Below the pieces are notes generated by a model, which saw only the letters and a list, made by a program, of their open reading frames with translations, did not search any database and had not been told where the DNA came from. Below, piece by piece: positions 14,095-51,694 of a DNA stretch of 64,000 nt. Position 1 is the first letter of the stretch. Every line of letters begins with the position of its first letter. The position numbers and the translations under genes are program-made. Source of the DNA: Escherichia coli (GTDB lineage Bacteria > Pseudomonadota > Gammaproteobacteria > Enterobacterales > Enterobacteriaceae); assembly GCF_002854065.1 (NCBI RefSeq), contig NZ_CP024147.1. The stretch is one strand, 5' to 3'.

Positions 14095-14199
14095 TAACAA
14101 TTCCCGATAGAAAAATACTATCGGGAATATTATCTACAGCTGACGAATCAAATAAAAATACCCTGTATAATAGGAAAGTTTATTTTACAGGGTAAAACC

Positions 14200-21190: not shown

Positions 21191-22618
21191 TTATTTACGT
21201 GCAGCCAGCATAGCGGTCAGTTTTTCAGCCCAGGCTTTGGTTTCCGGCAAATCCACCACCGGCTGGCTGTAGTGACCACGGTTGTCCGGGGCGACAGGCG
21301 TGGTGGCGTCGATAATCAGCTTGTCGGTGATCCCCGCCGGGCTTGAGCCAGGGTCGAGTTCCAGCACGGACATATTCGGCAACTGCACCAAATCCCCTGC
21401 CGGGTTCACTTTCGAGGAGAGCGCCCACATCACCTGCGGCAGGTTGAACGGATCAACGTCTTCATCGACCATAATCACCATCTTCACGTAGCCCAGACCG
21501 TGCGGCGTGGTCATCGCGCGCAGGCCCACCGCGCGGGCAAAGCCGCCGTAGCGTTTTTTGGTGGAGATAATCGCCAGCAGGCCGTGGGTGTACATGGCGT
21601 TTACCGCCTGCACTTCCGGGAACTCGGCTTTCAGTTGTTGATATAGCGGTACGCAGGTGGCTGGCCCCATCAGGTAGTCGATTTCGGTCCACGGCATGCC
21701 GAGGTACAGCGATTCGAAAATCGGCCTGGTGCGGTAAGAGACTTTATCGATGCGCACCACGGTCATGTTACGCCCGCCGGAGTAGTGTCCGGTAAACTCA
21801 CCGAACGGCCCTTCGATTTCGCGTTTACGGCTTTCGATGACCCCTTCGAGGATCGCTTCTGAACCCCACGGCACATCAAAACCGGTCAGCGGGGCGGTGG
21901 CGATCGGGTACGAGCTTTCACGCAGCGCGCCTGCCATTTCATACTCAGACTGATCGTATTTCAGCGGCGTGGCCCCCATCAGCGTGATGATCGGATCGTT
22001 ACCGAGCGTGATCGCAATCGGCAGATCTTCACCGCGCTCTTCTGCTTTATGCAGATGCAGGGCGATATCGTGCATCGGCACCGGTTGCAGGCCGAGCTTA
22101 CGCTTGCCCTTCACTTCCATGCGGTAGATGCCGACGTTCTGCTTGCCGAAGTTATCCGGGTCGAGCGGATCGCGGGAAACCACGCACGCTTTGTCGAGAT
22201 AGAAACCGCCATCACCGTCGTTTAAACGAAACAGCGGCAGGATATCGAACAGATTAATCTCGTCACCATCGACGGTGTTCTGCGCCCAGGCTGGATTGGC
22301 GCGGCGCTCCGGGGCAATCGGGAAGTTATCCCAGCGGCGGATAAACTCATCAATCTGTTTTTTAACCGGGGTGTTTGGCGGCAGGCCCAAGGAAATCGCG
22401 TGGTTCTGCCAGGAACCGATGGTATTCATCGCCACGCGGGCATCGGTAAAACCGCGAATATTATCAAACCACAGCGCCGGTGCACCATCGCCGATACGCC
22501 CGGTGGCGTTGGCAGCGGCAGCCAGATCCGGTTCCGCGTTCACCTCTTCGCTGATTTTCAGTAACTGGCCGTGGTCATCAAGCGCCTGTAAAAAGCTGCG
22601 TAAATCATCAAATGCCAT
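21191..22618 (-). CDS. ecdC: UbiD-family phenolic acid decarboxylase subunit C
   Basis: 475-aa ORF, UbiD-family decarboxylase. Confidence 0.85.
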   Translation of the reverse strand: MAFDDLRSFLQALDDHGQLLKISEEVNAEPDLAAAANATGRIGDGAPALWFDNIRGFTDARVAMNTIGSWQNHAISLGLPPNTPVKKQIDEFIRRWDNFPIAPERRANPAWAQNTVDGDEINLFDILPLFRLNDGDGGFYLDKACVVSRDPLDPDNFGKQNVGIYRMEVKGKRKLGLQPVPMHDIALHLHKAEERGEDLPIAITLGNDPIITLMGATPLKYDQSEYEMAGALRESSYPIATAPLTGFDVPWGSEAILEGVIESRKREIEGPFGEFTGHYSGGRNMTVVRIDKVSYRTRPIFESLYLGMPWTEIDYLMGPATCVPLYQQLKAEFPEVQAVNAMYTHGLLAIISTKKRYGGFARAVGLRAMTTPHGLGYVKMVIMVDEDVDPFNLPQVMWALSSKVNPAGDLVQLPNMSVLELDPGSSPAGITDKLIIDATTPVAPDNRGHYSQPVVDLPETKAWAEKLTAMLAARK

Positions 22619-23211
22619 TATTCATTCTCCTGAGAAAAATTCCGGGCCTGCGGCAATCCTTGCCAGCGCCTGGCGTAGGGATGTTCAAGGCCAAATTGAT
22701 CCAGCACGCGGGCTACCACGTGGTGGACAATGTCATCTACCGTTTCGGGATGGTTATAAAAGGCAGGCATCGGCGGCACCATCGCCACGCCCATGCGTGA
22801 AAGTGCGAGCATATTTTCGAGATGGATGGTGTTAAGCGGCATTTCACGCGGCACCAGTACCAGTTTGCGGCCTTCTTTGAGCACGACGTCCGCCGCGCGC
22901 CCTACCAGGCCATCGGCGTAACCAGCGCGGATACCGGCGAGCGTTTTCATACTGCACGGAATAACGATCATGCCGTCGGTACGAAAGGAACCTGAGGAGA
23001 TGGTCGCCGCCTGATCCGCCGGGTTATGGCTGAAGTCAGCGAGGGCAGCAACATCGCGGGCGCTGTAAGGCGTTTCCAGTTCAATGGTGGTTTTCGCCCA
23101 CTTCGACATCACCAGATGAGTCTCGATATTCGGCATCTCCTGCAGCGCTTGCAGTAATGCCACACCAAGAGGCGCACCGGTAGCCCCTGTCATCCCGACG
23201 ATCAGTTTCAT
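22618..23211 (-). CDS. ecdB: UbiX-like flavin prenyltransferase, decarboxylase subunit B
   Basis: 197-aa ORF starting MKLIVGMTGATGA, flavoprotein fold; overlaps ecdC start. Confidence 0.85.
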   Translation of the reverse strand: MKLIVGMTGATGAPLGVALLQALQEMPNIETHLVMSKWAKTTIELETPYSARDVAALADFSHNPADQAATISSGSFRTDGMIVIPCSMKTLAGIRAGYADGLVGRAADVVLKEGRKLVLVPREMPLNTIHLENMLALSRMGVAMVPPMPAFYNHPETVDDIVHHVVARVLDQFGLEHPYARRWQGLPQARNFSQENE

Positions 23212-23324
23212 TGCTTACTCTCTTAATTGTTCGTATACGAACGTTATTATTAAAATACGCCTCTGTTCTCATTGCGGCAAGCACTGAAAAGTAACAACAT
23301 CCCCTTCGTCACTGAAAAACCGCT

Positions 23325-23765
23325 ATGATAGCGGCAGATAGTTTGCCCGGAGTTTACATGGCGTTACGAAATAAAGCGTTCCATCAGTTACGACAGCTTT
23401 TTCAGCAGCACACATCTCGCTGGCAGCACGAGTTACCTGACCTGACCAAACCACAGTATGCGGTGATGCGTGCCATTGCTGATAAGCCTGGTATCGAACA
23501 GGTGGCACTGATAGAAGCAGCAGTCAGCACCAAAGCAACGCTGGCAGAAATGTTGGCAAGAATGGAAAATCGTGGCTTAGTCAGACGTGAACATGACGCC
23601 GCTGATAAGCGGCGACGCTTTGTCTGGCTGACTGCCGAAGGAGAAAAGATACTTGCTGCGGCGATACCGATTGGTGACAGCGTGGATGAGGAATTTTTGG
23701 GGCGTTTGAGTGCAGAAGAGCAGGAGCTGTTTATGCAGCTGGTGCGCAAGATGATGAACACATAG
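23325..23765 (+). CDS. MarR/SlyA-family transcriptional regulator, divergent from ecdBCD
   Basis: 146-aa ORF with winged-helix MarR signature. Confidence 0.75.
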   Translation: MIAADSLPGVYMALRNKAFHQLRQLFQQHTSRWQHELPDLTKPQYAVMRAIADKPGIEQVALIEAAVSTKATLAEMLARMENRGLVRREHDAADKRRRFVWLTAEGEKILAAAIPIGDSVDEEFLGRLSAEEQELFMQLVRKMMNT

Positions 23766-33907: not shown

Positions 33908-34945
33908 ATGTTTTCCGCATTGCGCCACCGTACCGCTGCCCTGGCGCTCGGCGTATGCTTTATTCTCCCCGTACACGCCTCGTCACCTAAACCTGGCGAT
34001 TTTGCTAATACCCAGGCACGACATATTGCTACTTTCTTTCCGGGACGCATGACCGGAACTCCTGCAGAAATGTTATCTGCCGATTATATTCGCCAACAGT
34101 TTCAGCAAATGGGTTATCGCAGTGATATTCGGACATTTAATAGTCGGTATATTTATACCGCCCGCGATAATCGCAAGAGCTGGCATAACGTGACGGGAAG
34201 TACGGTGATTGCCGCTCATGAAGGCAAAGCGCCGCAGCAGATCATCATTATGGCGCATCTGGATACTTACGCCCCGCTGAGCGATGCTGACGCCGATGCC
34301 AATCTCGGCGGGCTGACGTTACAAGGAATGGATGATAACGCCGCAGGTTTAGGTGTCATGCTGGAATTGGCAGAACGCCTGAAAAATACGCCTACCGAGT
34401 ATGGTATTCGATTTGTGGCGACCAGCGGCGAAGAGGAAGGGAAATTAGGCGCTGAGAATTTACTCAAGCGGATGAGTGACACCGAAAAGAAAAATACGCT
34501 GCTGGTGATTAATCTCGATAACTTAATTGTTGGCGATAAATTGTATTTCAACAGCGGTGTAAAAACCCCTGAAGCAGTAAGGAAATTAACGCGCGACAGG
34601 GCGCTGGCAATTGCGCGTAGTCATGGAATTGCCGCAACGACCAATCCGGGTTTGAATAAAAATTATCCGAAAGGCACTGGGTGTTGTAATGACGCAGAAA
34701 TATTCGACAAAGCGGGCATTGCTGTACTTTCGGTGGAAGCGACTAACTGGAATCTTGGGAATAAGGATGGTTATCAGCAACGCGCAAAAACAGCCGCATT
34801 CCCTGCGGGAAATAGCTGGCATGACGTAAGACTGGATAATCAACAGCATATTGATAAGGCACTTCCAGGAAGAATAGAACGTCGCTGCCGTGACGTTATG
34901 CGGATAATGCTACCACTGGTGAAGGAGCTGGCGAAGGCGTCTTGA
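33908..34945 (+). CDS. iap: Alkaline phosphatase isozyme conversion aminopeptidase
   Basis: 345-aa ORF with signal peptide and M28 peptidase features. Confidence 0.85.
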   Translation: MFSALRHRTAALALGVCFILPVHASSPKPGDFANTQARHIATFFPGRMTGTPAEMLSADYIRQQFQQMGYRSDIRTFNSRYIYTARDNRKSWHNVTGSTVIAAHEGKAPQQIIIMAHLDTYAPLSDADADANLGGLTLQGMDDNAAGLGVMLELAERLKNTPTEYGIRFVATSGEEEGKLGAENLLKRMSDTEKKNTLLVINLDNLIVGDKLYFNSGVKTPEAVRKLTRDRALAIARSHGIAATTNPGLNKNYPKGTGCCNDAEIFDKAGIAVLSVEATNWNLGNKDGYQQRAKTAAFPAGNSWHDVRLDNQQHIDKALPGRIERRCRDVMRIMLPLVKELAKAS

Positions 34946-35070
34946 TGGGTTTGAAATGATGACTCCCGTGCCTGCAGGAAATCAATGCCACCTGAAACAG
35001 AGAATAAAAAAGGGTGCAGGAGGCCAAACCATCACAATTCAATACGCGGGGTTTTACCCCCGCGTGGTGG

Positions 35071-35223
35071 CTACTTCTTCGATTCGTAAGCGAGAACTGC
35101 CTTAAACTCCATACCACGCTCTCTGATACTCAACTCACATAACGAGTCGCCTACCATGAGCGTGAATCCCAGTACTGTACAACACAGTACTATGATTGCC
35201 ACAAGGGCATATTTTGTTAGCAT
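35071..35223 (-). CDS. Hok-family type I toxin (hokX-like), intact 50-aa ORF
   Basis: [50 protein letters not shown]: TM helix plus conserved SLCEL...LAYES C-terminus; GGGAGG SD 6 nt upstream. Confidence 0.75.
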
Positions 35224-35430
35224 GTCTTGCCTCCCTGCAAAGAAGAGACTAACATCCGAATTGCTACGTTCGAACGCGAGCCTCAGGTTGATAGAAATAT
35301 CGCCTGGGGCTTTTGTCCATCTGGAACCTCGCGAATGCTTAACGCCAGACAGCCTCAAGCACCCGACGCCATTCTATACCTGATAATTCTTCCAGCGGCG
35401 TTCACGTTTAAAATCAGGAATGCTGCTCGC

Positions 35431-35470
35431 AAAATAAAAACGCCCCCATCATTTCTGACAGAGGCGTTTA
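35431..35470 (-). terminator. Likely cysJIH operon terminator
   Basis: Minus strand hairpin (aacgcctc...gggggcgtt) followed by TTTTTATTTT just downstream of cysH stop. Confidence 0.4.
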
Positions 35471-35486
35471 ATTTATCCGGCAATAT

Positions 35487-36221
35487 TTACCCTTCGTGTA
35501 ACCCACATTCCCTTTTTAAGCCAAAGAAACGCGTTTCTTCTTCCGCCATGCCGGGTTCCCATTTACGGGTTGTATGGGTATCGCCCACCGATAAATATCC
35601 TTCGTCCCATAATGGGTGATATTTCAGGCCATGTTTTTGCAGGTACTGATAAATAGTTCGGTTATCCCAGTCGATAATCGGCAGCACTTTAAATACGCCA
35701 CGCTGAATTGCCAGCACCGGTAAATTGGCGCGGCTGCCGGATTGTTCACGGCGCAGGCCAGCAAACCAGGTTTGCGCATTCAGTTCTTTTAGCGCCCGGT
35801 TCATCGGTTCGACTTTGTTGATGTCATTGTACTTTTCAATGCCTTCAACGCCCTGTTCCCACAGTTTTCCGTAGCGTGCTTCCTGCCAGGCTGCGCTTTC
35901 GGTAGCACGGTACACTTTCAGGTTGAGCTTGAGTTTGTCCGTTAACTCGTCAATAAAGCGGTAGGTTTCCGGGAACAAGTAACCGGTATCGGTGAGGATC
36001 ACTGGAATATCCGGGCGAATCTGATTCACCAGATGCAGGCTCACCGCCGCCTGAATGCCGAAGCTGGAAGAAAGCACATATTCACCGGGCAGATTATCCA
36101 GCGCCCAGGCTACGCGGCCTTCAGCGTCCAGTTTTTCCAGTTGGGCGTTAGTTTCCGCCAGCGCCAGAATGCGATCTACCTTCGGCAGTTCGTTCAGGGC
36201 GTTTAGATCGAGTTTGGACAT
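35487..36221 (-). CDS. cysH: Phosphoadenosine phosphosulfate reductase
   Basis: Start at [12 protein letters not shown] inside longer ORF; 244 aa; C-terminal ECGLH motif. Confidence 0.9.
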
Positions 36222-36294: not shown

Positions 36295-38007
36295 TTAATC
36301 CCACAAATCGCGCGCCGGATCGAGCACCGGGCGAATGATGCCCGCACGCACCGTAAAGTCGCCGAAGCCTTCACCCGCTTCGCGCTCTTTCGCCCAGCGC
36401 CCTATCAGTTCATCAAGCGACGCCAGGATTTCCGGCTCGGTGATGTTTTCTTTATACATCCGTGGGATACGTGTCCCAATGCGGTTGCCGCCAAGATGCA
36501 GGTTGTAGCGACCCGGCGCTTTACCCACCAGGCCCACTTCCGCCAGCATCGCGCGACCACAACCGTTCGGGCAGCCTGTTACACGCATCACGATATGCTC
36601 ATCGCTGACACCATGTTTCGCCATTAAATTATCGATGTTGTCGATAAAAGACGGCAGGAAACGCTCCGCTTCCGCCATCGCCAGCGGGCAAGTCGGGAAT
36701 GACACGCAGGCCATTGAGTTTTCACGCTGCGGCGTGACGGCATTCATTAACCCGCTCTCTTTGGCGATCCTCTCGATCTTCGCTTTCTCACTTTCCGGCA
36801 CACCGGCGATGATCAGATTCTGGTTCGCCGTAATGCGGAAATCACCTTTGTGGATCTTTGCGATCTCCAGCAGGCCGGTTTTCAGCGGACGCCCCGGATA
36901 ATCAAGGATGCGACCATTTTCGATAAACAGCGTCAGGTGCCAGTTATCATCAATGCCCTTAACCCAGCCAATACGATCTCCGCGTCCGGTAAACTCATAC
37001 GGGCGAATCGGCTCGAATTTGATCCCCGCGCGACGTTCCACTTCCGCTTTAAATGTCTCAACACCCACGCGCTCCAGCGTGTATTTGGTTTTGGCATTTT
37101 TACGATCGGTACGGTTACCCCAATCGCGCTGAGTCGTCACGACGGCTTCCGCCACCGCCAGGGTATGCTCCAGCGGCAGATAACCAAACTCGCTCGCCGT
37201 GCGGGCGTAGGTTTTCTTATTACCGTGTTCGATGGAAAGCCCGCCGCCCACCAGCAGGTTAAAGCCTACCAGCTTGCCGTTTTCGGCGATTGCCACGAAG
37301 TTCATGTCGTTGGCGTGCAGATCGATATCGTTCTGTGGCGGGATCACTACCGTGGTTTTGAATTTACGCGGCAGGTAGGTCTGGCCGAGGATCGGTTCTT
37401 CATCAGTGGTGGCGACTTTTTCCTGATCGAGCCAGATCTCCGCATACGCGCGGGTACGCGGCAGCAGATGTTCCGAGATTTTCTTCGCCCACTCGTACGC
37501 TTCTGCGTGCAGCTGCGACTCGTAAGGGTTCGAGGTGCAGAGTACGTTACGGTTCATGTCGTTAGCGGTCGCCAGCGCATCAAGACCGACCGAGTGCAGC
37601 ATCTGGTGCACCGGTTTGACGTTCTTTTTCAGAATGCCGTGGAACTGGAATGTCTGGCGGTTGGTCAGGCGAATGCTGCCATAGATGGTGTTTTCACCGG
37701 CAAATTTATCGATCGCCTGCCACTGTTTGGTGGTGATAACTCCACCCGGCAGACGGCAGCGCAACAGCATCGCATGGCGCGGCTCCAGCTTCTGTTCAGC
37801 ACGTTCGGCGCGGATGTCGCGGTCATCCTGCTGATACATGCCGTGGAAGCGGATCAGCAGGAAGTTGTCGCCCTTAAAGCCGCCGGTCAGACCGTCGTTT
37901 AAATCTTCCGCAATGGTGCCGCGCAGGTAGTTGCTTTCAAGCTTCATGCGCTCGGCGTCTGTCAGTTTTCCTTCGACCACTAAAGGCCCTGGATGTTTTT
38001 CGCTCAT
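36295..38007 (-). CDS. cysI: Sulfite reductase hemoprotein beta subunit
   Basis: 570-aa ORF, siroheme/4Fe-4S Cys cluster. Confidence 0.9.
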
Positions 38008-39806
38008 TAGTAGACATCTCGCTGATAACGGCGCTCTACGCGCAGCTCACTTAAAAATTCATCCGCCGCTTCGGTGTCCATACCACCAAATTCGGCAATC
38101 ACTTCCAGAAGTGCCTGCTCAACGTCTTTCGCCATGCGATTAGCGTCGCCGCAGACATAAATGTGGGCACCGTCATTGATCCAGCGCCACAGCTCCGCGC
38201 CCTGTTCGCGTAGTTTGTCTTGTACGTAAACTTTTTCTTTTTGATCGCGCGACCAGGCGAGATCGATACGTGTCAGCACACCCTCTTTGACGTAGCGCTG
38301 CCACTCCACCTGGTAGAGGAAATCTTCCGTAAAATGCGGGTTGCCAAAGAACAGCCAGTTTTTACCCGGTGCTTCATCGGCAGCACGTTGCTGCATAAAG
38401 GCGCGGAACGGCGCGATACCGGTGCCTGGGCCAATCATAATCACCGGGGTTTCTGGATTGGCTGGTAGGCGGAAGTTATCGTTATGTTCGATAAATACGC
38501 GGAGTTCGCCCTCTTCTTCCACGCGGTCCGCAAGGAAGCTGGAGGCCCCCCCGGCACGGGCGCGGCCTTCCACGTCGTAACGCACCACACCAACGGTGAC
38601 GTGTACTTCGTTCTCGACTTCCGCCTGCGAGGAGGCAATGGAATAGAGACGCGGCGTCAGCGGGCGCAGCAGATTAATTAGCGCTTCGGCATCAAGCTGT
38701 GCCGGGGAGAAACGCACCATGTCAACAATCGGCGTCGTCGCGGCGTAATGCTGTAACTTCGCTTTATCGCCCACCAGCGGCAGCAGTGTTTCACTGCGGG
38801 TAAGCGTGGCATAATTCTCAACAATGTTGGCGGTGTTGACGGTCAGTTCGAAGTGCCACTGTAGCGCTTCGTTCAGAGGCAACGTTTTGCCCTCGACGGT
38901 GACAGGTTCATCGCCTTTCAGCCACAGCAGTTCGACAAGTTCTTTCACCAGTGCCGGATCGTTCTGATACCAGACACCCAGCGCGTCACCCGGCTGGTAA
39001 CGCAGGCCCGAGTCACCTAAGTCAATTTCGATATGGCGAACGTCTTTTTCAGAGTTACGCCCGGTAATTTTCTGGTTAACCGAAAGGCTCGCTACCAGCG
39101 GCGCGTCTTTGCTGTACGGGCTGGTGTGGATTTCATTTACCACGCCAGTAGCGACGGATTGCGAAGGTGCCGCGACAGGCGCACGCGATTTAAGCGCATC
39201 AACCACGCGGGCGCGCCACTCGCTGGCAGCAGCCTGGTATTCAACGTCGGCGTCGACACGGTCGAGCAGGCGTTCACCGCCCAGTTCCGCCAGCTTGCTG
39301 TCGAAATCTTTCCCGGACTGGCAGAAAAATTCATAAGAACTATCGCCGAGGCTAAACACGGCAAAAGCGGTATTTTCCAGCTTCGGCGCTTTTTTGGAGA
39401 ACAGGAACTTATGCAGCGCGACGGCTTCTTCCGGCGGTTCCCCTTCTCCTTGCGTTGACGTCACCACGATAAGCAGTTTTTCGCTGGCGATTTGTTTGAA
39501 TTTATAGTCGCCCGCGTTCACCAGCTTAACGTTCAGTTTTGCCGTCAATAAATCATCGCGTAATGCTTCAGCAACCCGGCGCGCATTGCCGGTTTGCGAA
39601 GCAGAGATAATAGTTATACCCGGCATTTCTGCGGCTGGCGCTGGCGTCGCTGCAAGCGCAGCAGGCTGCTGATTGAGCACGCCCCAGAAATAGCCAGAAA
39701 CCCAGGCAAGCTGGGGGGGAGTTAAATCGGTCGTGGCCGCCTGAAGGCGTGCCAGTTGCTCCGGGTTCAACGGAAGCAACGCGGAAGGTGGGACCTGTGT
39801 CGTCAT
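38007..39806 (-). CDS. cysJ: Sulfite reductase flavoprotein alpha subunit
   Basis: 599-aa ORF with flavodoxin and FAD/NADPH domains. Confidence 0.9.
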
Positions 39807-40120
39807 GCGTCGTTATGTTCCAGTAAGCAAAGCTGTTTCTGCGCCCTGTCAGCGCCCATAAAACAGAAGAGAAGGTAAGGTTAACGGGGTGAACGGTGTG
39901 GATTAAAGACGGGATAGCGATAACTAATAACCAAATCGACTAACCTGTTTTAGCAATAGTCTTTAACAACAAAATAGATTAACCAACCTATTGAAAAAAA
40001 ATGAATTTAGCCAATCATTAAGATAAATCAGCGATTTTGCGCAACAAAGTCGTTTTAGATAATGCGAAAAAAGAGCCTTTCCGGTACTCTACGGCGGTTT
40101 TATCGTCCTGTAGAGAAATT

Positions 40121-40486
40121 ATGATGTCCACCACGTTATTTAAAGATTTCACCTTCGAAGCCGCTCACCGCTTACCACACGTCCCGGAAGGGCATAAATG
40201 TGGTCGCCTGCACGGGCATTCCTTTATGGTGCGACTGGAAATTACCGGGGAAGTCGATCCGCATACGGGCTGGATTATCGATTTCGCTGAACTAAAAGCG
40301 GCGTTTAAGCCAACTTATGAGCGCCTCGATCACCATTATCTCAATGATATTCCAGGTCTGGAAAACCCAACTAGCGAAGTTTTAGCAAAATGGATTTGGG
40401 ATCAGGTTAAACCCGTTGTGCCGCTGTTAAGTGCGGTGATGGTAAAAGAAACCTGCACCGCTGGTTGTATCTATCGCGGCGAATGA
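40121..40486 (+). CDS. queD: 6-carboxy-5,6,7,8-tetrahydropterin synthase
   Basis: Start at [18 protein letters not shown] inside longer ORF; 121 aa. Confidence 0.9.
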
Positions 40487-40563
40487 TAAGAGTGTGGCGG
40501 CGGTCAATTTCCCTTAAGTAACGCTATGTTAGGGTGTTGTGTTCAGGATATCTGGGGCATGAC

Positions 40564-41835
40564 ATGGAAGACGACTGCGACATTATTATTATTGGTGCCG
40601 GTATTGCAGGCACCGCTTGCGCGTTACGCTGCGCGCGAGCGGGTTTATCCGTTTTGTTACTGGAACGCGCTGAAATCCCCGGCAGCAAAAATCTTTCCGG
40701 CGGGCGGTTATATACCCATGCACTCGCGGAACTCCTCCCTCAATTTCATCTGACCGCGCCTCTTGAACGACGCATCACTCACGAAAGCCTTTCCCTGTTA
40801 ACGCCGGATGGCGCAACGACGTTTTCCAGCTTACAGCCCGGCGGTGAATCCTGGAGTGTATTACGTGCACGGTTCGATCCGTGGCTGGTTGCCGAAGCCG
40901 AAAAAGAAGGTGTCGAATGCATCCCTGGTGCGACGGTGGATGCACTGTATGAAGAAAACGGCAGGGTGTGTGGTGTCATTTGTGGTGACGATATTCTCCG
41001 CGCCCGTTATGTGGTGCTGGCAGAAGGTGCCAACAGCGTCCTGGCTGAACGTCACGGGTTAGTGACTCGTCCTGCTGGCGAAGCGATGGCGTTGGGGATC
41101 AAAGAAGTGCTGTCGCTGGAAACATCCGCTATTGAAGAACGTTTTCATCTGGAGAATAACGAAGGCGCAGCGTTGCTGTTCAGCGGCGGAATCTGTGATG
41201 ACTTACCCGGCGGCGCATTTCTTTATACTAATCAACAAACGCTCTCGTTAGGGATTGTTTGCCCACTCTCTTCCCTTACGCAAAGTCGTGTTCCGGCAAG
41301 CGAGCTGCTTGCTCGCTTTAAAACGCATCCGGCAGTGCGCCCGCTTATCAAAAACACGGAATCACTGGAGTATGGTGCGCATCTGGTGCCAGAAGGTGGC
41401 TTGCACAGTATGCCGGTACAATACGCCGGTAACGGCTGGCTGCTGGTGGGCGATGCGTTGCGCAGTTGCGTCAATACCGGAATTTCTGTGCGCGGCATGG
41501 ATACGGCGCTAACTGGCGCGCAGGCGGCGGCACAAACACTGATAAGCGCCTGCCAGCACCGCGAGCCGCAAAATCTGTTTCCGCTTTATCATCACAACGT
41601 AGAGCGCAGCCTACTGTGGGATGTTCTACAGCGTTATCAGCATGTTCCGGCGCTTTTGCAACGCCCGGGATGGTACCGTACGTGGCCTGCGTTAATGCAG
41701 GATATTTCCCGCGATTTATGGGATCAGGGTGATAAACCTGTTCCACCGCTGCGCCAGTTACTCTGGCGTCATTTACGTCGTCATGGCTTGTGGAATCTGG
41801 CGGGCGATGTTATCAGGAGTGTTCGATGTCTGTAG
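40564..41835 (+). CDS. ygcN: FAD-dependent oxidoreductase, FixC/ETF-QO-like
   Basis: Start at MEDDCDIIIIGAGIAGTACA (Rossmann GxGxxG); 423 aa. Confidence 0.85.
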   Translation: MEDDCDIIIIGAGIAGTACALRCARAGLSVLLLERAEIPGSKNLSGGRLYTHALAELLPQFHLTAPLERRITHESLSLLTPDGATTFSSLQPGGESWSVLRARFDPWLVAEAEKEGVECIPGATVDALYEENGRVCGVICGDDILRARYVVLAEGANSVLAERHGLVTRPAGEAMALGIKEVLSLETSAIEERFHLENNEGAALLFSGGICDDLPGGAFLYTNQQTLSLGIVCPLSSLTQSRVPASELLARFKTHPAVRPLIKNTESLEYGAHLVPEGGLHSMPVQYAGNGWLLVGDALRSCVNTGISVRGMDTALTGAQAAAQTLISACQHREPQNLFPLYHHNVERSLLWDVLQRYQHVPALLQRPGWYRTWPALMQDISRDLWDQGDKPVPPLRQLLWRHLRRHGLWNLAGDVIRSVRCL

Positions 41836-42086
41836 CCCGTAATCTCTGGCGCGCTGCTGATGCGCCGCATATTGTTCCGGCTGACTCCGTTGAGCGCCAG
41901 ACGGCAGAACGATTAATTAACGCCTGCCCGGCAGGTCTTTTTGCGCTCACGCCGGAAGGCGACTTGCGTGTTGATTATCGCGGTTGCCTTGAGTGTGGCA
42001 CCTGCCGTTTGCTGTGCGACGAATCAACACTACAACAGTGGCGCTATCCACCTTCCGGATTCGGCATCACCTACCGCTTTGGATAA
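41826..42086 (+). CDS. ygcO: Ferredoxin-like protein, FixX-like
   Basis: 86 aa with CLECGTCRLLC motif; overlaps ygcN end. Confidence 0.8.
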   Translation: MSVARNLWRAADAPHIVPADSVERQTAERLINACPAGLFALTPEGDLRVDYRGCLECGTCRLLCDESTLQQWRYPPSGFGITYRFG

Positions 42087-42102
42087 ATAATAAGGATAAT
42101 TT

Positions 42103-42678
42103 ATGCCCCTCTTACACCTGCTCCGCCAGAATCCGGTGATTGCTGCCGTTAAAGATAATGCCAGCCTGCAACTGGCAATCCATTCTGAATGCCAATTTAT
42201 TTCCGTGTTGTACGGCAATATCTGCACCATCAGTAATATCGTTAAAAAGATTAAGAACGCCGGGAAATATGCTTTTATTCATGTTGATTTGCTGGAAGGC
42301 GCGTCAAATAAAGAAGTCGTGATTCAGTTTTTGAAACTGGTGACCGAGGCGGACGGCATTATCAGTACCAAAGCCTCAATGTTGAAAGCGGCAAGAGCGG
42401 AAGGTTTTTTCTGTATTCATCGCCTGTTTATTGTTGATTCAATTTCGTTTCACAACATTGATAAGCAAGTTGCGCAATCGAATCCGGATTGTATTGAGAT
42501 CCTGCCAGGCTGTATGCCCAAAGTGCTGGGCTGGGTGACGGAAAAAATCCGCCAACCGCTGATTGCTGGCGGGCTGGTATGCGATGAAGAAGATGCGCGT
42601 AATGCGATTAACGCGGGTGTCGTGGCGCTTTCCACCACGAATACCGGAGTCTGGACGTTAGCGAAAAAATTGCTTTGA
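42103..42678 (+). CDS. ygcP: GlpP-family antiterminator-like regulator
   Basis: 191-aa ORF, GlpP/G3P-antiterminator family. Confidence 0.8.
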   Translation: MPLLHLLRQNPVIAAVKDNASLQLAIHSECQFISVLYGNICTISNIVKKIKNAGKYAFIHVDLLEGASNKEVVIQFLKLVTEADGIISTKASMLKAARAEGFFCIHRLFIVDSISFHNIDKQVAQSNPDCIEILPGCMPKVLGWVTEKIRQPLIAGGLVCDEEDARNAINAGVVALSTTNTGVWTLAKKLL

Positions 42679-42712
42679 CGGGATAATCGTAACCAATTGA
42701 ATTTGGTTTGAT

Positions 42713-42781
42713 TTGTAGGCCGCACGCCACATCCGACATTCAGCGCCTGATGCGACGCTTAACACGTCTTATCAGGCCTAC
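42713..42781. repeat. REP element(s) between convergent ygcP and ygcQ
   Basis: tgtaggccg... and gcctgatgcgacgcttaacacgtcttatcaggcctac. Confidence 0.5.
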
Positions 42782-42825
42782 AGGTCCCCAGTCCAGAACC
42801 GTAGGCAGGATCATCCGGCAACACG

Positions 42826-43686
42826 TTATTGGCAATCTGCGTGAATGTTTGTCACCAGTGCCTCCAGCACCACTTTCCAGTCATCAACCACGCCAACATC
42901 TGCCTGTGAAAATACCGCTGCGCTGGCGTCATGATTAATCGCCACCACAAACTTGCTATTGCGTACGCCCGCCATTAACGCTGCTGCGCCAGAAGCGCCA
43001 ACAACAATACACACCTCAGGTGCCAGCAGATGTCCGGAAATACCAATCACTTTTTCAGCATCAACGCCACCGTTCATCACTCGCGCCCGACTGTAGCCCA
43101 CTTCGGCTCCCAGCTTTTCTGCCAGCATAGCGATTTCCTGGTTATCTGCCTCTCCGCCCTGCCCCACCACCAACACCCGTCTGGCCTCAGCTAATGGGTC
43201 GCGGGTAACATTTTTCAGGTTCTCTATACTAACCAGCCAGTCCGGAAGCGCACCTGGGACTATGTTCAGTTGCTGCATACCAGAGGGCAAAGTGGCATTT
43301 TTATCTGCTCCCGCCTGGCGCGCCAGGGAAAGACATAGCGGGCGTTTTTCTGTTTGCAGCGTCGCCGTTAGCGCATTTCCCCAGTGGGATTTGCGCACGC
43401 TTACGATTGGAATCTCTAACGAAGTCACCTGGCAGATGCTTGCACCATGTAAACGCCAGGCCAGCCGAGTCGACAGTTCATCGCCAAACGTTCCCGGCGG
43501 AAAGAGAACAACGTTCGCAGGCGTTCGCTGCCACTGTTCCACCAGCGCATCCAGCACCTGTTCCACCACTACGGGCTGTGGTTCTATTTGCCAGTGCGCC
43601 AGGGTACAACCGCTGAAATCCTGCGCCGCCAGCCAGCCCGCTAATGCGGCATTCTCCTGATTTATTGTCACAATTGCGATATTCAT
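42826..43686 (-). CDS. ygcQ: Electron transfer flavoprotein alpha-subunit-like (FixB-like)
   Basis: Start at MNIAIVTINQ inside longer ORF; 286 aa. Confidence 0.8.
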   Translation of the reverse strand: MNIAIVTINQENAALAGWLAAQDFSGCTLAHWQIEPQPVVVEQVLDALVEQWQRTPANVVLFPPGTFGDELSTRLAWRLHGASICQVTSLEIPIVSVRKSHWGNALTATLQTEKRPLCLSLARQAGADKNATLPSGMQQLNIVPGALPDWLVSIENLKNVTRDPLAEARRVLVVGQGGEADNQEIAMLAEKLGAEVGYSRARVMNGGVDAEKVIGISGHLLAPEVCIVVGASGAAALMAGVRNSKFVVAINHDASAAVFSQADVGVVDDWKVVLEALVTNIHADCQ

Positions 43687-44462
43687 GGCTGCATCCTTTG
43701 GCGTAAATAGTCCTGCCATAGCTTTTGCGCTTTTTCTGCTACCGTTTGCCCATCAATCAGCGTCGCTCCGCGTCGTTGCTCTGCTCTTGCCAGTTGCAGA
43801 CACTGCATCGCTGGCAATTCGGCAGCAACAGTTTTACGGATAATTTCCGCTTTCCCCGCAGCCATTCGCTGGCGCATTCCCGGTACTGGCAAGGCCACTT
43901 CACCGCACTGACGCACGGCAATCACCGCAGGCAAGCGAATCCGACAACAGCGCAGCCCATGTTCAGTACGCTGTTCGAGGGTGATAAACGGCGCGTCGAG
44001 AGTGAAACGCTCCACCTGGGTGAAGCATGGCCAGCCCAGCATTTCCGCCAGCAAAAATGGCGTTTGCCCATTCTGCCCTTCGCTGCTTTGGCAGCCGGTA
44101 ATTATCAGATCCAGCGGATTCTGACGCTGCCATTCGGCAATATGGCGAGCGACAAATTCCGACGCAAAGCGCAGATCTGCCGCCGTCTCCAGCAATACAG
44201 CTTCCTCAAACCCAAGAGCCATGAGATAGAGCAGCCAGTGTAACGCCCGTTCATCCCCCATGCTCAACGCGGTTAAAGACATCGGCGTACCGTTTTTTCT
44301 CTGCGCCAACAGCAGCGCGGCGGCAGCCTGTTCATCAGCACCGAGTAAACTTCGCAGTAGCGAAACATCCGGTCCGCTATTACCCTGAGCCGCCGCCTGC
44401 CACTCTTTTTCCGCCAGCATTCCGGCATCCGGTTCGGCTTTAAACGCTAACAGAATGTTCAT
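43683..44462 (-). CDS. ygcR: Electron transfer flavoprotein beta-subunit-like (FixA-like)
   Basis: 259-aa ORF, overlaps ygcQ start. Confidence 0.8.
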   Translation of the reverse strand: MNILLAFKAEPDAGMLAEKEWQAAAQGNSGPDVSLLRSLLGADEQAAAALLLAQRKNGTPMSLTALSMGDERALHWLLYLMALGFEEAVLLETAADLRFASEFVARHIAEWQRQNPLDLIITGCQSSEGQNGQTPFLLAEMLGWPCFTQVERFTLDAPFITLEQRTEHGLRCCRIRLPAVIAVRQCGEVALPVPGMRQRMAAGKAEIIRKTVAAELPAMQCLQLARAEQRRGATLIDGQTVAEKAQKLWQDYLRQRMQP

Positions 44463-45777
44463 TCGCACCTCCTACATTTCCCGCCGCCACCAGCGGGAGG
44501 GCTTTGGTTTCTGGTGCCCATAGCCAGGTCACAACAAAACCAACCAACAACACTGCCGCCAGGAGCAATAAGGTGACTTGCATTCCCCACTGCGCCAGCA
44601 CCCACGGCAGCAGGCCAGTACTTACCGCCGCCCCCAACCGACTCATGGCGGTGGCAAAACCGACACCCAGCGAGCGAATGTCAGTAGGAAAACTTTCCGC
44701 AGGCAAAATGCCCACCAGATTACTGACTGCCGAAATGGTGGTGCTGAAGAGAACAAAAAGCAGTAGCGTTAATGAACTGCCGGAAGGCAAACAGGCCATC
44801 ACTACCAGCGTTGCCGCCAGCAGCAAAAAACTTCCCAGCAAAAACTTGCGATGTGCCAGCAGGTGCGTCAGAACTAATCCCAGCAGCGCGCCCACAATTA
44901 ACAACGCATTAAGCATCAGGCTGGCAGTCAGCGCATCTTCCAGTCCAATAGTCTGGGCGATAGTTGGCAGCCAGGTATAAATCACAAACCATGGGATTAC
45001 GAGGCAGACAAAGAAGACGCTGTTAAACGCCGTGCGCCGCCAGTAGCGCAAAGAGAACAAGGTTTTGATGTGTTTATGGGTCGCCGTTGCCACTTCATCG
45101 CCCAGTAAAACATGGGGACCAAAATAGCGATGCACGATAGCGTGAGCTTCTGCAAAACGCCCCTGGCGCAGTAGCCAGCGTGGCGATTCTGGCGTTCCCC
45201 AGCGTAATAACGTAATCAACAACGCGGGCAGAGCTGCCGATGCCAGCAGCCAGCGCCAGGCCTCCGGGTTTTCGGAAATAAAGTGATGTCCGGCAATACT
45301 TGCCAACACATAGCCTACGGTCCACACCACGCTGAATGCGCCCAGCAAAATACCGCGATGGCGGCGCGGGGAAAATTCAGCCAGCAAGGTGTGACCTACT
45401 GAGTAATCGCCTCCCAGACCAATGCCGATCAAAATGCGCAGCCCAATAAGATGCTCTGGCGTGGTGGCAAAAAATTGCAAGAACGAAGCGAGCGTAATCA
45501 GCAAAAAGCTGAAGGTGAAGATTTTTTGCCGACCAATATGGTCGGAGATCCACCCAAGAACCAGGCTGCCAAGAAACAAACCAAGGAGCGCCGAGCCGCC
45601 GATCATTCCCGCCATAAACGGCGTCAGTTGCATGGCGGGCGTAAGTTGAATAATGGCGTAACCAATGACGCCGAGAACATAACCGTCGGTCAGGTGTGCG
45701 CCGAAAGTGAGCGCAGCAATTCGACAGTGAAAACGGTTAAGCGGTAAATCATCCATTCGCACCGGTGAAGTGTTCAT
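44440..45777 (-). CDS. ygcS: MFS sugar-porter-family transporter
   Basis: Start at MNTSPVRMDDLPLNRFH inside longer ORF; 445 aa, 12 TM. Confidence 0.8.
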   Translation of the reverse strand: MNTSPVRMDDLPLNRFHCRIAALTFGAHLTDGYVLGVIGYAIIQLTPAMQLTPFMAGMIGGSALLGLFLGSLVLGWISDHIGRQKIFTFSFLLITLASFLQFFATTPEHLIGLRILIGIGLGGDYSVGHTLLAEFSPRRHRGILLGAFSVVWTVGYVLASIAGHHFISENPEAWRWLLASAALPALLITLLRWGTPESPRWLLRQGRFAEAHAIVHRYFGPHVLLGDEVATATHKHIKTLFSLRYWRRTAFNSVFFVCLVIPWFVIYTWLPTIAQTIGLEDALTASLMLNALLIVGALLGLVLTHLLAHRKFLLGSFLLLAATLVVMACLPSGSSLTLLLFVLFSTTISAVSNLVGILPAESFPTDIRSLGVGFATAMSRLGAAVSTGLLPWVLAQWGMQVTLLLLAAVLLVGFVVTWLWAPETKALPLVAAGNVGGANEHSVSV

Positions 45778-45870
45778 CTTTACCCCTTCATTGTCCGGTA
45801 ATAAGAACGGCTTCTCGCCTGAGAAGCCGAAAAGGCAACGCCCCATCATCGCAGAACGCTGCCTGACACA

Positions 45871-47325
45871 TTATTTTTCAATCGGATAGATAGTACCCGT
45901 ATTCATAATGCCGTTAGGATCGAACTGCTTTTTCAGCCCTTCCAGCAACGCCCACGCGCTGCCGTGTTCCAGCTTGCTCCAGTGAACGCGATGTTTACCG
46001 ATACCGTGGTGGTGCACCATCGAACCACCGAGGCGAATGGTTTCTTCGCAAATGATTTTGTTGAGCGGATTGTGGTACTTGTCGATTTCCTCTTCCGGCT
46101 TACAGTTGACAACGTTGTAGTCGTAGACGAAGTACATGTTGGTGCCGTTCTGATAGCTATGAGAGGAGTGACCGCCCAGCATAGTGATGTCGTCGGCGTG
46201 CGGGAACTCGGTACGAATACGGTTAATAACGCTTTCGTAGATTTCGTGGATGCAGCTCCAGCAGCCGGACACTTCGGTAGTAAAGCCCATGTTGCCGGTT
46301 TTGAGGATCTGCACACGTTCGGCAGCCACTTTATCCGGTCCCCAGTTCAGGTTGTTAAACCAGGTTTCGATCAGCTTGCTGTCCACGCGTTGGCATTGCG
46401 GGTAGCGGGCAACGATTTCCGCAATCCCTTCGCCCGTCGCCTTCGCAATGCGAGGGTTACCTTCAGCCATAAAGATCAGCACGCATTTTCCGTCGGCAAA
46501 ATGGGTGAAGTGTTGGGTGCCATCTTCAGCGTCATACAAACGAGCGATCGACGGACGATACCCTTCCACCATGATTTCACGCAGGATGTTGAAGCCGGTT
46601 TTCATGTCTTCCAGGATATAGCCGTAGAAGAGGTTGTTTTCCGGGGTGAATTTAAAGATTTTCACTGTTACTTCAGTGATATAGCACAATGCACCTTCGT
46701 TGCCGATGATGATGTGACGAATGTCCGGGCCAGCCGCGCGGCGTGGCACGTTTTTAATGCGTGTGACGGTGCCATCAGCCAATACTGCTTCCAGACCAAC
46801 GACCATATCTTCGATTGCGCCGTAGAGTGTGGAGAACTGCCCGATACTGCGGGTTGCTACCAGGCCGCCCATCTGCGCCAGCGGCTTTGACTGCGGAGAA
46901 TGCCCCGTGGTGTAACCTTTTTCACGCAACGCGTTTTCCAGCACTTCCAGGGGAACGCCACATTGCGCCGTCGCCTGCATATTCTCAATATCAATATTAA
47001 TGATTTGATTCATGGCGGAGCCGTCGAGCACCACCGAGTTTTCTACAACAGTTTCCAGCCCACCTTCGGTGGCGGAAGCACCGGTACGCGGCACACCGTT
47101 AATTTTGTGCGCATTCATAAAATTCAGCACACGGGATATTTGCTCTGTGGAACCGAGTTTTACGACCGCTGCCGGAATCGGCAAAGTATAAATGCCATGA
47201 ATATCCGGAAATTTACGAAAACGGTCAATACTGTTCTTCTTTAATACTGTTTCATCGGTAATTACGCGATCTGCACCAACAATTTCCTTTAGCTGGTCGA
47301 CAATCGCTGCGCGAGATAAAGACAT
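45871..47325 (-). CDS. ygcU: FAD-linked oxidase
   Basis: 484-aa ORF, FAD-binding PCMH-type domain. Confidence 0.85.
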   Translation of the reverse strand: MSLSRAAIVDQLKEIVGADRVITDETVLKKNSIDRFRKFPDIHGIYTLPIPAAVVKLGSTEQISRVLNFMNAHKINGVPRTGASATEGGLETVVENSVVLDGSAMNQIINIDIENMQATAQCGVPLEVLENALREKGYTTGHSPQSKPLAQMGGLVATRSIGQFSTLYGAIEDMVVGLEAVLADGTVTRIKNVPRRAAGPDIRHIIIGNEGALCYITEVTVKIFKFTPENNLFYGYILEDMKTGFNILREIMVEGYRPSIARLYDAEDGTQHFTHFADGKCVLIFMAEGNPRIAKATGEGIAEIVARYPQCQRVDSKLIETWFNNLNWGPDKVAAERVQILKTGNMGFTTEVSGCWSCIHEIYESVINRIRTEFPHADDITMLGGHSSHSYQNGTNMYFVYDYNVVNCKPEEEIDKYHNPLNKIICEETIRLGGSMVHHHGIGKHRVHWSKLEHGSAWALLEGLKKQFDPNGIMNTGTIYPIEK

Positions 47326-47394
47326 AGTAATTCCTTCCTGATAATAAAAATGGAATAATCATTAATAAGAGAAAACAGAAACCACCGTTATGGG

Positions 47395-48180
47395 TTAGCG
47401 CACTAAATAACCGCCATCAACTACTAATAAATGCCCGTTGACATAATTCGATGCCGGACTTGCGAGGAATACGGCTGCGCCCATTAAATCCTGAGTATCG
47501 CCCCAACGGTTTGCCGGAATATGATCAAGAACGCGCTGATTGGTTTCTGGATTACTACGTGTCGCCAGCGTAATATCTGTTGCATAATAGCCAGGGGCGA
47601 TACCATTTACCTGAATATTATATTGACCTAGTTCATCACAATAAGCTTTGGTGAACCCGGCAAGAGCATGTTTAGTGGCAGAATATGCAGGTGACCATTG
47701 TCCACCTAAGTAAGAGAATAATGAACAGATATTAATTATTTTACCGCTTTTCTGCGGGATCATAATTTTTGCCGCTTCATAGCTTAACTCGAATGCGGCG
47801 GTCAGGTTCACATCAATCATCGGGTCCCAGTCGGCACGACCGAAGTCCAGCACCTTATTCAGCTTACAAATACCGGCATTGTTAACCAGAATATCGACGG
47901 TACCGAAACGTTCGCAACAGGCGGCGATTATCTTCTGCGGCGCGCCTTCTGCGGTGATATCCACCTGCATGAAGTCCACCTCAACACCCTGTTTTTCAAT
48001 CATTTCCTTTGTTTCGCCGTTATCTTTGACGAAGCTAGGAATAAAGACATTTGCGCCTGCTTTGGCCAACGCCATGGCAAATGCCTGGCCTAAACCGCTA
48101 TTCCCGCCGGTAACAATTGCGGTTTTACCTTTCAGGGAGAAAAAATCCATTGAGAACGCATTGAGAGATTCGATTGACAT
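47395..48180 (-). CDS. ygcW: Short-chain dehydrogenase/reductase
   Basis: Start at MSIESLNAF inside longer ORF; TGGNSGLG cofactor motif; 261 aa. Confidence 0.8.
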   Translation of the reverse strand: MSIESLNAFSMDFFSLKGKTAIVTGGNSGLGQAFAMALAKAGANVFIPSFVKDNGETKEMIEKQGVEVDFMQVDITAEGAPQKIIAACCERFGTVDILVNNAGICKLNKVLDFGRADWDPMIDVNLTAAFELSYEAAKIMIPQKSGKIINICSLFSYLGGQWSPAYSATKHALAGFTKAYCDELGQYNIQVNGIAPGYYATDITLATRSNPETNQRVLDHIPANRWGDTQDLMGAAVFLASPASNYVNGHLLVVDGGYLVR

Positions 48181-48499
48181 AGTTAGCTCCAATTTCCGTA
48201 AGGCAAAAAAAAAAGAAAGGTAACTTCCCCCGCGAGAGGGAAGTTACCTTTCTCATTATCTCTGGTAACTGGAGATAATTTTTAGCATAAGGGCATAACT
48301 GCTAATGTGATCGTAATCACAGTGTGATATTCGCATTATCAAATAGTTTTAAAAAGCAGAAGCGTGATTACTCTCACACAACACCTCTGCTTTCCATGTT
48401 ATTTCTTATTGCAATTACTAGAGACCTGAGAAAAGTAATCCACCTGAAAGGGCGGCTTACTTTTCTCTTTTTTTTGTCTATTACAAATGGGAATACGAT

Positions 48500-49803: not shown

Positions 49804-51282
49804 ATGTCGAAGAAATACATCATAGGGATTGATGGCGGAAGTCAGAGCACAAAAGTGGTGATGTACGATCTGGAAGGTAACGTGGTTTGCGAAGGCAAAG
49901 GTTTATTGCAGCCGATGCACACGCCAGATGCCGATACCGCAGAACATCCTGACGACGATTTATGGGCATCATTATGTTTTGCCGGTCACGATTTGATGAG
50001 TCAGTTTGCCGGGAATAAAGAAGATATTGTCGGTATTGGTCTGGGATCCATCCGTTGCTGCCGTGCGTTATTGAAAGCCGATGGCACGCCTGCTGCGCCG
50101 TTGATTAGCTGGCAGGATGCACGCGTAACGCGTCCCTACGAACACACTAATCCTGACGTGGCCTATGTCACCTCTTTTTCGGGTTATCTGACGCATCGCT
50201 TAACCGGCGAGTTTAAAGACAATATCGCCAACTATTTTGGTCAGTGGCCGGTGGATTATAAGACCTGGGCATGGAGTGAAGATGCTGCGGTAATGGATAA
50301 GTTTAATATCCCCCGTCATATGCTGTTTGATGTGCAAATGCCTGGCACCGTCCTCGGACATATCACACCACAAGCCGCACTGGCGACACATTTCCCGGCA
50401 GGACTGCCGGTTGTTTGTACCACCAGTGATAAACCGGTAGAAGCTCTGGGGGCCGGATTACTGGATGATGAAACGGCGGTAATTTCTCTTGGCACCTACA
50501 TCGCGCTGATGATGAACGGCAAAGCACTGCCGAAAGATCCGGTGGCGTACTGGCCGATTATGTCTTCTATTCCGCAAACATTGCTGTATGAAGGTTACGG
50601 TATCCGTAAAGGCATGTGGACGGTGAGCTGGCTGCGCGACATGCTAGGCGAGTCGTTAATTCAGGATGCCAGGGCGCAGGATCTTTCACCGGAAGATTTA
50701 CTCAACAAAAAAGCTTCTTGTGTGCCGCCAGACTGTAATGGTCTGATGACGGTGCTGGACTGGCTGACCAATCCGTGGGAACCGTACAAACGCGGGATTA
50801 TGATCGGCTTTGATTCCAGCATGGATTACGCATGGATATATCGTTCGATACTGGAAAGCGTGGCGCTGACGCTGAAGAACAATTACGACAATATGTGTAA
50901 TGAAATGAATCACTTTGCGAAGCATGTGATCATTACTGGCGGCGGTTCGAACAGCGATCTGTTTATGCAGATTTTTGCCGACGTGTTCAACCTTCCGGCA
51001 CGACGTAACGCCATTAACGGTTGTGCAAGTCTGGGGGCAGCGATTAATACCGCGGTAGGTCTGGGGCTATACCCGGATTACGCAACGGCTGTCGATAAAA
51101 TGGTTCGCGTGAAAGATATCTTTATACCGATTGAGAGCAATGCCAAACGCTACGACGCGATGAATAAAGGCATTTTCAAAGACCTAACCAAACATACTGA
51201 TGTGATTCTGAAAAAATCGTATGAAGTGATGCATGGGGAATTGGGAAATGCGGATTCGATCCAGAGCTGGTCGAATGCGTAA
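49804..51282 (+). CDS. ygcE: FGGY-family carbohydrate kinase
   Basis: 492-aa ORF starting MSKKYIIGIDGGSQSTK. Confidence 0.85.
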   Translation: MSKKYIIGIDGGSQSTKVVMYDLEGNVVCEGKGLLQPMHTPDADTAEHPDDDLWASLCFAGHDLMSQFAGNKEDIVGIGLGSIRCCRALLKADGTPAAPLISWQDARVTRPYEHTNPDVAYVTSFSGYLTHRLTGEFKDNIANYFGQWPVDYKTWAWSEDAAVMDKFNIPRHMLFDVQMPGTVLGHITPQAALATHFPAGLPVVCTTSDKPVEALGAGLLDDETAVISLGTYIALMMNGKALPKDPVAYWPIMSSIPQTLLYEGYGIRKGMWTVSWLRDMLGESLIQDARAQDLSPEDLLNKKASCVPPDCNGLMTVLDWLTNPWEPYKRGIMIGFDSSMDYAWIYRSILESVALTLKNNYDNMCNEMNHFAKHVIITGGGSNSDLFMQIFADVFNLPARRNAINGCASLGAAINTAVGLGLYPDYATAVDKMVRVKDIFIPIESNAKRYDAMNKGIFKDLTKHTDVILKKSYEVMHGELGNADSIQSWSNA

Positions 51283-51329
51283 GTGAGGAAGGCCGGGCGG
51301 GAAACAGCACGGCCTGAACATACCTGAAT

Positions 51330-51500
51330 GGTTATCCCCGCTGACGCGGGGAACTCTCTAAACATAACCTATTATTAATTAATGATTTTTTAAGCCAGTC
51401 ACAATCTACCAACTTTACAGTATCACACAAACAACACATCCATCATGTTAAAGAGCACTTAACCCATTGATTAAAAAGGTAAATATTTAAAATAACTCTA
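51330..51500 (-). CDS. placeholder
   Basis: placeholder. Confidence 0.
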
Positions 51501-51694
51501 TACAAACTAAAATCTACCAAACTTTACCGCAATAATTTTCACTCCAGCGAAAAATTAACGCCACAGAATTTGTAGAGAATGATAATGATTAGTTCAGGAT
51601 GGGCAAAATGGAGGTTTTTCAGAGACGACAAAGAATATAAATGAGTAGAAGTCTTTACAGGTTCCACCCATTTATAACGCTTATAAATGTTTAA

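Follow-up and report, generated by a model that had tools for sequence, protein, structure and literature searches.

The DNA analysed here, referred to as the window, is a 64-kb stretch of an Escherichia coli chromosome that includes the CRISPR-I site between iap and cysH (Table 1). The site is flanked in the canonical orientation, cysDNC-iap ... cysHIJ, the same as in O157:H7 and K-12-like references. An earlier reading of this DNA made from the letters alone (the sequence-only reading) had placed the iap stop at 34945 and the cysH stop at 35487, and the open reading frames together with the family matches bear out both positions and the gap of 541 bp between them (34946-35486). The iap annotation is also borne by the matching genomes, and the cysH coding sequence of 735 nt agrees with the RefSeq annotation. 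From left to right, the window carries iap, 11 bases shared with other alleles, a 48-bp segment, a hok/sok unit, the cysJIH terminator, and cysH. The interval had been described as holding only a hok-family toxin gene. The toxin gene is indeed present, as the full-length Pfam match and the Rfam sok match indicate, but it shares the interval with the sok/hok-leader region, the cysJIH terminator, and the allele-specific segment of 48 bp. Rfam matches to ctRNA_p42d and Spot_42 at 35429-35507 were sub-threshold and overlap the cysH terminator; we set them aside as terminator-like chance similarity.

Table 1. Coordinates of the features at the CRISPR-I and CRISPR-II sites of the window.
Feature	Position	Strand	Basis and remarks
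iap (alkaline phosphatase isozyme conversion aminopeptidase)	33908..34945	+	Left flank of the CRISPR-I site; ORF and NCBIfam aminopeptidase equivalog NF007568, 705 bits
11 bp past the iap stop	34946..34956		Common to cas-less and cas-positive alleles; end of the left homology block (blastn against the O157 and K-12 loci)
48-bp cas-less-specific "filler" segment	34957..35004		Unmatched in O157 and K-12; fills the place of ~9.0-9.7 kb of array, leader, cas operon, and cas3-proximal spacer
hok transcript 3' untranslated end (predicted)	35005..35070	-	U-run, 3' fold-back element GGCCUCCUGCACCC, GC hairpin; the right homology block with E1 strains starts here
CDS of a hok-family toxin (50 aa), the hok of the published hok/sokX pair	35071..35223	-	ORF; Pfam PF01848, E 6.3e-10
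Promoter-like site, candidate Sok promoter	35196..35223	+	TTGCCA-16-TAGCAT with upstream TG, antisense to the hok start; consensus scan only
hok mRNA leader / Sok-target region	35208..35364	-	Rfam sok RF01794, 105.3 bits against a gathering score of 59, full model 1-157
Intrinsic terminator hairpin followed by a T-run (cysJIH operon terminator)	35438..35469	-	Just downstream of cysH; terminator scan
cysH (PAPS reductase)	35487..36221	-	Right flank of the CRISPR-I site; ORF and TIGR02057, 347 bits
Single I-E repeat TGGTTATCCCCGCTGACGCGGGGAACTC	51329..51356	+	All that is left of the CRISPR-II arrays, ygcE–queE; 2 substitutions and 1 deletion (indel-tolerant search)
Repeat-to-queE stretch including a CRISPR2.3-type leader, no array	51357..51694	+	96.4% identical to K-12 from its last repeat through queE

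In cas-positive references, the iap–cysH interval measures 9959 bp in the K-12-like genome gb37 and 9555 bp in O157:H7. In both genomes it holds the array, the leader, and cas2-cas1-cas6e-cas5-cas7-casB-casA-cas3. A gapless search of the whole 64-kb window for the canonical 29-nt I-E repeat returned no match with three or fewer mismatches, and an indel-tolerant search allowing up to six errors found no I-E repeat between iap and cysH. When all eight Cas proteins from both E. coli I-E variants were used as tblastn queries, only chance-level matches were obtained in the 64-kb window (best E 0.018) and none in the iap–cysH interval, with every cas gene recovered in O157 as the positive control. 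The claim that the interval has neither a cas ORF nor a 29-nt repeat was thus upheld by both kinds of repeat search and by tblastn. The I-E leader, CRISPR2.1 repeats, and cas-E genes are likewise absent between iap and cysH. Over the 64 kb, tblastn found none of cas3, the Cascade genes (casA-E), or cas1-cas2, and nothing in the window matches the AT-rich spacers that adjoin cas3 in O157 and K-12. An array of 29-nt repeats with 32-33-nt spacers is also absent from the window, which has one solitary repeat between ygcE and queE. The sole similarity of the inserts of the two cas-positive variants, E1 (O157:H7) and E2 (K-12), to the window consists of this CRISPR-II repeat and its leader (51332-51473).

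The part of the interval next to cysH holds what is, by sequence and predicted fold, an intact hok/sok type I toxin-antitoxin unit. Residues 5-46 of the Hok peptide align to positions 1-42 of the 42-position PF01848 model, a full-length Hok/Gef match, and the identical peptide occurs in O157 and APEC O1, where RefSeq labels it "Hok/Gef family protein". Being on the sense strand of hok and ending close to the start of that gene, the Rfam match marks the leader and Sok target and does not fix the strand of the Sok RNA. In the predicted hok mRNA of ~360 nt, with its 5' end at 35364, the 3' element GGCCUCCUGCACCC pairs with the 5' element GGGUGCUUGAGGC. The fold has a minimum free energy (MFE) of -140.5 kcal/mol (z = -5.2), and the pairing between the two ends appears in both the MFE and the centroid structure, which are single-sequence predictions. 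Such a fold-back between the 5' and 3' ends is the known arrangement of hok mRNAs. The consensus scan that gave the candidate Sok promoter returned one site against 0.7 expected in shuffled sequences, which is at chance level. Upstream of hok the reading frame is open back to 35358, with no convincing mok start codon at the expected distance. The toxin gene and its 3' end are 97% identical to those of Escherichia sp. E1V33, against a background of ~92.6%, which fits a constraint acting on both the coding sequence and the RNA structure.

Like hok/sok of plasmid R1, the chromosomal hokA-E loci, and the hok/sokX pair beside cysH, the window thus presents a 50-aa Hok/Gef peptide, a leader matching the sok model, mRNA ends predicted to pair, and a candidate antisense promoter site. 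The peptide scores below the NCBIfam curated cut-offs for both HokA and the generic Hok subfamily. We therefore dropped the identification as HokA, and the toxin is a distinct chromosomal paralogue, with a putative membrane-damaging activity that Sok would neutralise. The sequence-only reading had implied that hok took the place of the cas genes. That implication does not hold, because in O157:H7, a cas-positive strain of the E1 type, this gene occupies the stretch from cas3 to cysH and encodes an identical peptide; hok/sok is a conserved, resident neighbour of cysH, not a replacement for cas. K-12 is the exception, having lost the hok coding sequence while keeping the sok region. According to Almendros et al. 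2014 (mBio, PMC3903273), only strains with the E2 (K-12-type) cas variant are without hok sok; hok with sokX adjoins cysH in 90% of UPEC strains (PMC12736100).

The type I-E loci of K-12 and O157:H7 occupy the same site as the interval in the window and share its first 11 bp after iap; from the 3' end of hok onward, everything is common to O157:H7 and the window. What the window does not have is the block of 9.0-9.7 kb comprising the degenerate terminal repeat, the array, the leader, the eight cas genes, and the cas3-proximal spacer. The blastn alignments place the left breakpoint at 34956/34957 against both variants. The right breakpoint lies at 35004/35005 against E1, whereas homology with E2 resumes at 35221. 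The first of these right boundaries coincides exactly with the terminal U-run of the predicted hok mRNA, at 35005, and the second exactly with the hok start codon, at 35221. Since the E1 boundary falls precisely at the 3' end of the transcript, the whole hok unit is preserved.

We examined how the two kinds of locus are distributed among 5426 complete E. coli genomes with a 161-bp junction query (34900-35060), calling a genome cas-less when at least 80% of the query was covered. The junction (the end of iap, the 48-bp segment, and the IG3 block) is contiguous in 1129 of the 5426 genomes (20.8%), with the segment present once in each. A longer query of 1.1 kb spanning iap, hok, and cysH was contiguous in 1105 complete genomes. 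All remaining genomes align to query positions 1-57 and/or 106-161 only: both outer blocks are present and separated in ~2799 genomes (E1-like), and one outer block alone is present in ~1495 (mostly K-12-like). None of the 5426 genomes has both the 48-bp segment and a split locus, and there are no intermediates, so the 48 bp and the CRISPR-Cas block exclude each other. Judged by these alignments, the cas-less and cas-positive (E1, E2) haplotypes are strictly alternative alleles with fixed breakpoints. Because no cas-positive genome carries the 48 bp, the alleles differ, as read from the sequence comparison, by substitution of 48 bp for 9.0-9.7 kb and not by a clean excision or a nested deletion.

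These counts qualify two further claims. The strain is really cas-less at this locus, as had been stated, but this is no peculiarity of the strain, given that one fifth of the complete genomes share the haplotype. The locus had also been said to show no visible scar. It is true that no CRISPR remnant persists in the interval, but the junction bears 48 bp (34957-35004) missing from every cas-positive genome, and elsewhere in the window an I-E relic of one repeat and a leader (51329-51694) survives at the second array site. The same data bear on the idea, raised by the sequence-only reading as the finding that would overturn it, that the short interval is an artefact of assembly, in which array and cas region collapsed or dropped out. 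Repetitive as they are, CRISPR arrays can be misassembled; however, ~8 kb of unique cas sequence cannot collapse, and the junction is without a repeat. Moreover, the identical contiguous sequence recurs in independently finished genomes: separately assembled complete genomes with contiguous iap, hok, and cysH number 1105-1129, and one of these matches at 100% identity. An artefact is thus virtually inconceivable.

Where the 48 bp came from was approached by comparison with the cas-positive loci. Neither the E1 and E2 inserts, nor the degenerate repeat next to iap with the oldest spacer, nor the canonical repeat resembles the segment significantly. By eye, the segment seemed to share motifs with the degenerate iap-proximal repeats of O157 and K-12, as though it were such a repeat and spacer in decay, but z-scores between -0.96 and 1.33 reduce these motifs to chance; the scores come from local alignment and from semi-global alignment under two scoring schemes, each set against mono- and dinucleotide shuffles. 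An origin as a piece of the deleted interval was rejected as well, as local alignment to the 9-kb inserts of O157 and K-12 gave no score beyond the shuffle range and blastn found the segment nowhere in cas-positive genomes.

The iap-cysH region without cas-E genes was reportedly first surveyed by Diez-Villasenor et al. in 2010. The configuration of the window is already known: by its sequence it is "arrangement B" of the CRISPR-I locus, which is described by Almendros et al. 2014 (mBio, PMC3903273) as cas-less, with hok sok and the cas3-distal intergenic block IG3 retained and the cas3-proximal blocks IG4/IG5 absent. The window is bounded by iap and cysH, has no cas-E genes, leader, or CRISPR2.1, keeps hok sok and the IG3 block, lacks IG4/IG5, and has the junction shared with B2 strains; by position, the block at 35005-35070 would be the IG3 of that paper. 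The authors give arrangement B as typical of phylogroup B2, also mention it in basal groups, take cas-E1 (arrangement A) as most ancient with B derived, and model B as a deletion between IG6 and IG3 (PMC3903273). Cas-less strains are reported to be mostly B2 (PMC12736100). Compared with the B2 reference strains of arrangement B, APEC O1 and ST131, the window has the same flanks and a common junction. It differs from the published model in having 48 bp at the junction beyond such a deletion, and deletion of the region between IG6 and IG3 would not by itself yield these 48 bp.

The second I-E array site in the window lies between ygcE (49804-51282) and queE (51695-52366). Its single repeat escapes the gapless three-mismatch search owing to a 1-nt deletion and is found by the indel-tolerant search. 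Homology to K-12 ends at 51354 on the ygcE side and starts at 51332 on the queE side, leaving an overlap of 23 bp inside the repeat, which indicates that CRISPR-II collapsed by repeat-repeat recombination into one hybrid repeat with no spacer. The relic is evidence that the forebears of this stretch of chromosome had active I-E components. Leaders of CRISPR-II are conserved in strains without cas, according to Almendros et al. 2014 (PMC3903273). Like the orphan and collapsed arrays of other cas-less E. coli, the window keeps an intact CRISPR2.3-type leader and a single repeat; the array here is at its minimum, one hybrid repeat and no spacer.

The closest complete genome is CUWW06 (NZ_CP182139.1), which is 100% identical to the window over the iap–cysH interval. 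Its type I-F site was inspected between clpA and infA: clpA, tRNA-Ser, and infA are adjacent, and type I-F cas genes are absent. Two I-F repeats are left between clpA and tRNA-Ser (14014-14099 of locus L009), one with a single mismatch and one degenerate, and by sequence they are an orphan CRISPR4.1-2-type remnant. Such a two-repeat I-F remnant is usual in strains without I-F cas genes (PMC4489801). A wholly cas-less genome for the strain of the window would be an extrapolation from CUWW06 as its proxy, where the two canonical cas sites were inspected. Over 36295-48192, CUWW06 matches the window with 100% identity in two pieces spanning ~0.8 kb beyond the query, implying an insertion of ~0.8 kb in CUWW06, possibly an IS1, copies of which are annotated elsewhere in that genome.

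Outside the CRISPR-I site, the 11.9 kb from cysI to ygcW (36295-48192) are 98.5% identical to O157:H7, 97.5% to K-12, and ~96% to B2 strains, and four genomes are at least 99% identical over this stretch. The window is therefore not B2-like; its sequence suggests a lineage outside B2 that is sparsely sampled and has phylogroup E as its nearest group. In another part of the window, between ygbN and rpoS (21191-23765), we observed a gene for a VdcC-like UbiD-family decarboxylase of 475 aa (NF041204, 786 bits) together with a VdcB/UbiX-like prenyltransferase of 197 aa and a divergent MarR-family regulator of 146 aa. These three genes of the variable mutS-rpoS region are presumably absent from K-12.

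Close to the junction, the nearest relative changes along the sequence. TB06052 has no mismatch to the window over 34050-34866, and the cas-less PapRG-06-5 has none over 34917-35364, junction included. The cas-positive O157:H7 has two mismatches over the 628 bp at 35005-35632, where cas-less B2 strains are 94-96% identical to the window; from 35633 on, differences from O157:H7 cluster. This mosaic, read from the mismatch patterns against six reference loci, points to homologous recombination that moved the allele between backgrounds with crossovers near the junction, because near-identity between cas-positive and cas-less sequences extends to the very breakpoint, next to an allele-specific segment that is old. 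It fits the modular exchange at this locus described by Almendros et al. 2014 (PMC3903273).

One might still suppose that the array and cas operon were deleted privately in the immediate ancestry of this strain, as the near-identity of the right flank to cas-positive E1 (2 mismatches in 628 bp against O157) and the past I-E components indicated by the CRISPR-II relic would allow. However, the junction with its 48 bp is shared with 1129 genomes of other lineages and with another species, and an independent deletion would not recreate it. Nor are the 48 bp contained in the sequence that would have gone. With the mosaic flanks also speaking against it, a recent private deletion is very improbable.

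The distribution of the junction gives an indication of the age of the cas-less allele. The segment of 48 bp is kept in B2 strains, TB06052, PapRG, and Escherichia sp. E1V33. In the B2 strains ST131 and APEC O1, the 65-bp junction is 93.8% identical to that of the window, and the window's own junction variant occurs at 95% identity or more in 5-6 of the 5426 genomes. E1V33, which represents a separate species, shares this junction and aligns colinearly with 10.4 kb of the window, at 92.6% identity. The 48-bp segment of E1V33 is 89.6% identical to that of the window against an intergenic background of 87.5%; recent introgression of an E. coli cas-less allele into E1V33 was discarded, as the junction has diverged about as much as the background intergenic sequence. 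The cas-less allele is old, given that the 48 bp private to it have diverged by 8-10% between lineages and that another Escherichia species carries it. We also observed that E. coli TB06052, from fresh water of the Galapagos, has the E1V33 junction variant (872-1043 of locus L004), down to the five substitutions within the 48 bp, yet is identical to the window in the 3' part of iap. This combination is a further sign of exchange at the locus, perhaps across the species boundary.

An old allele could also be an ancestral empty site, in which the 48 bp are the original DNA between iap and hok, later overwritten by recombination with the I-E module, so that nothing was ever lost here. The absence of the 48 bp from all cas-positive genomes, their lack of relation to the insert, the occurrence of the allele in E1V33 at background divergence, and the difference by substitution instead of nested deletion would all suit such a history. 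Against it, the I-E repeat and leader at CRISPR-II are hard to explain without I-E adaptation genes at an earlier time, though import by recombination could also have brought them. The near-identity of the right flank to a cas-positive strain speaks for recent exchange and not for long separate histories, and Almendros et al. 2014 (PMC3903273) take cas-E1 as most ancient and B as derived. On balance, we consider an ancestral empty site quite improbable. A wider version might be that the 48 bp are original to the genus and the cas-less state is ancestral, with the I-E cassette flipping in and out by homologous recombination and the intact hok/sok unit fixing the right boundary because damage to sok by a crossover or deletion would be lethal; we offer this as a speculation that is unlikely to be correct.

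Taken together, the window very probably carries an old and common arrangement-B haplotype that was inherited or recombined in, and was not freshly deleted. The cas-less allele would have come down by descent or been installed by homologous recombination through the conserved flanks, in a lineage that once had I-E components and whose second array site keeps one repeat and a leader. The outcome is a CRISPR-I locus without genes for I-E interference or adaptation, at which hok/sok stays as the resident neighbour with its unit presumably intact. To what was known of this arrangement, the present analysis adds a few modest points. The cas-less and cas-positive haplotypes differ by a substitution with fixed breakpoints, and the 48-bp segment is exclusive of cas across 5426 genomes and also occurs outside E. 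coli, in E1V33. On the right, the breakpoints coincide with the end of the hok transcript for E1 and with the start codon of hok for E2, and the flanks are mosaic although the background is not B2. For this strain, native I-E interference and adaptation are not to be expected, and CRISPR typing at CRISPR-II will give one repeat and zero spacers. The presence or absence of I-E is a standard descriptor of E. coli lineages, and I-E status bears on susceptibility to phages and plasmids, on CRISPR typing, and on the use of endogenous Cascade for engineering.
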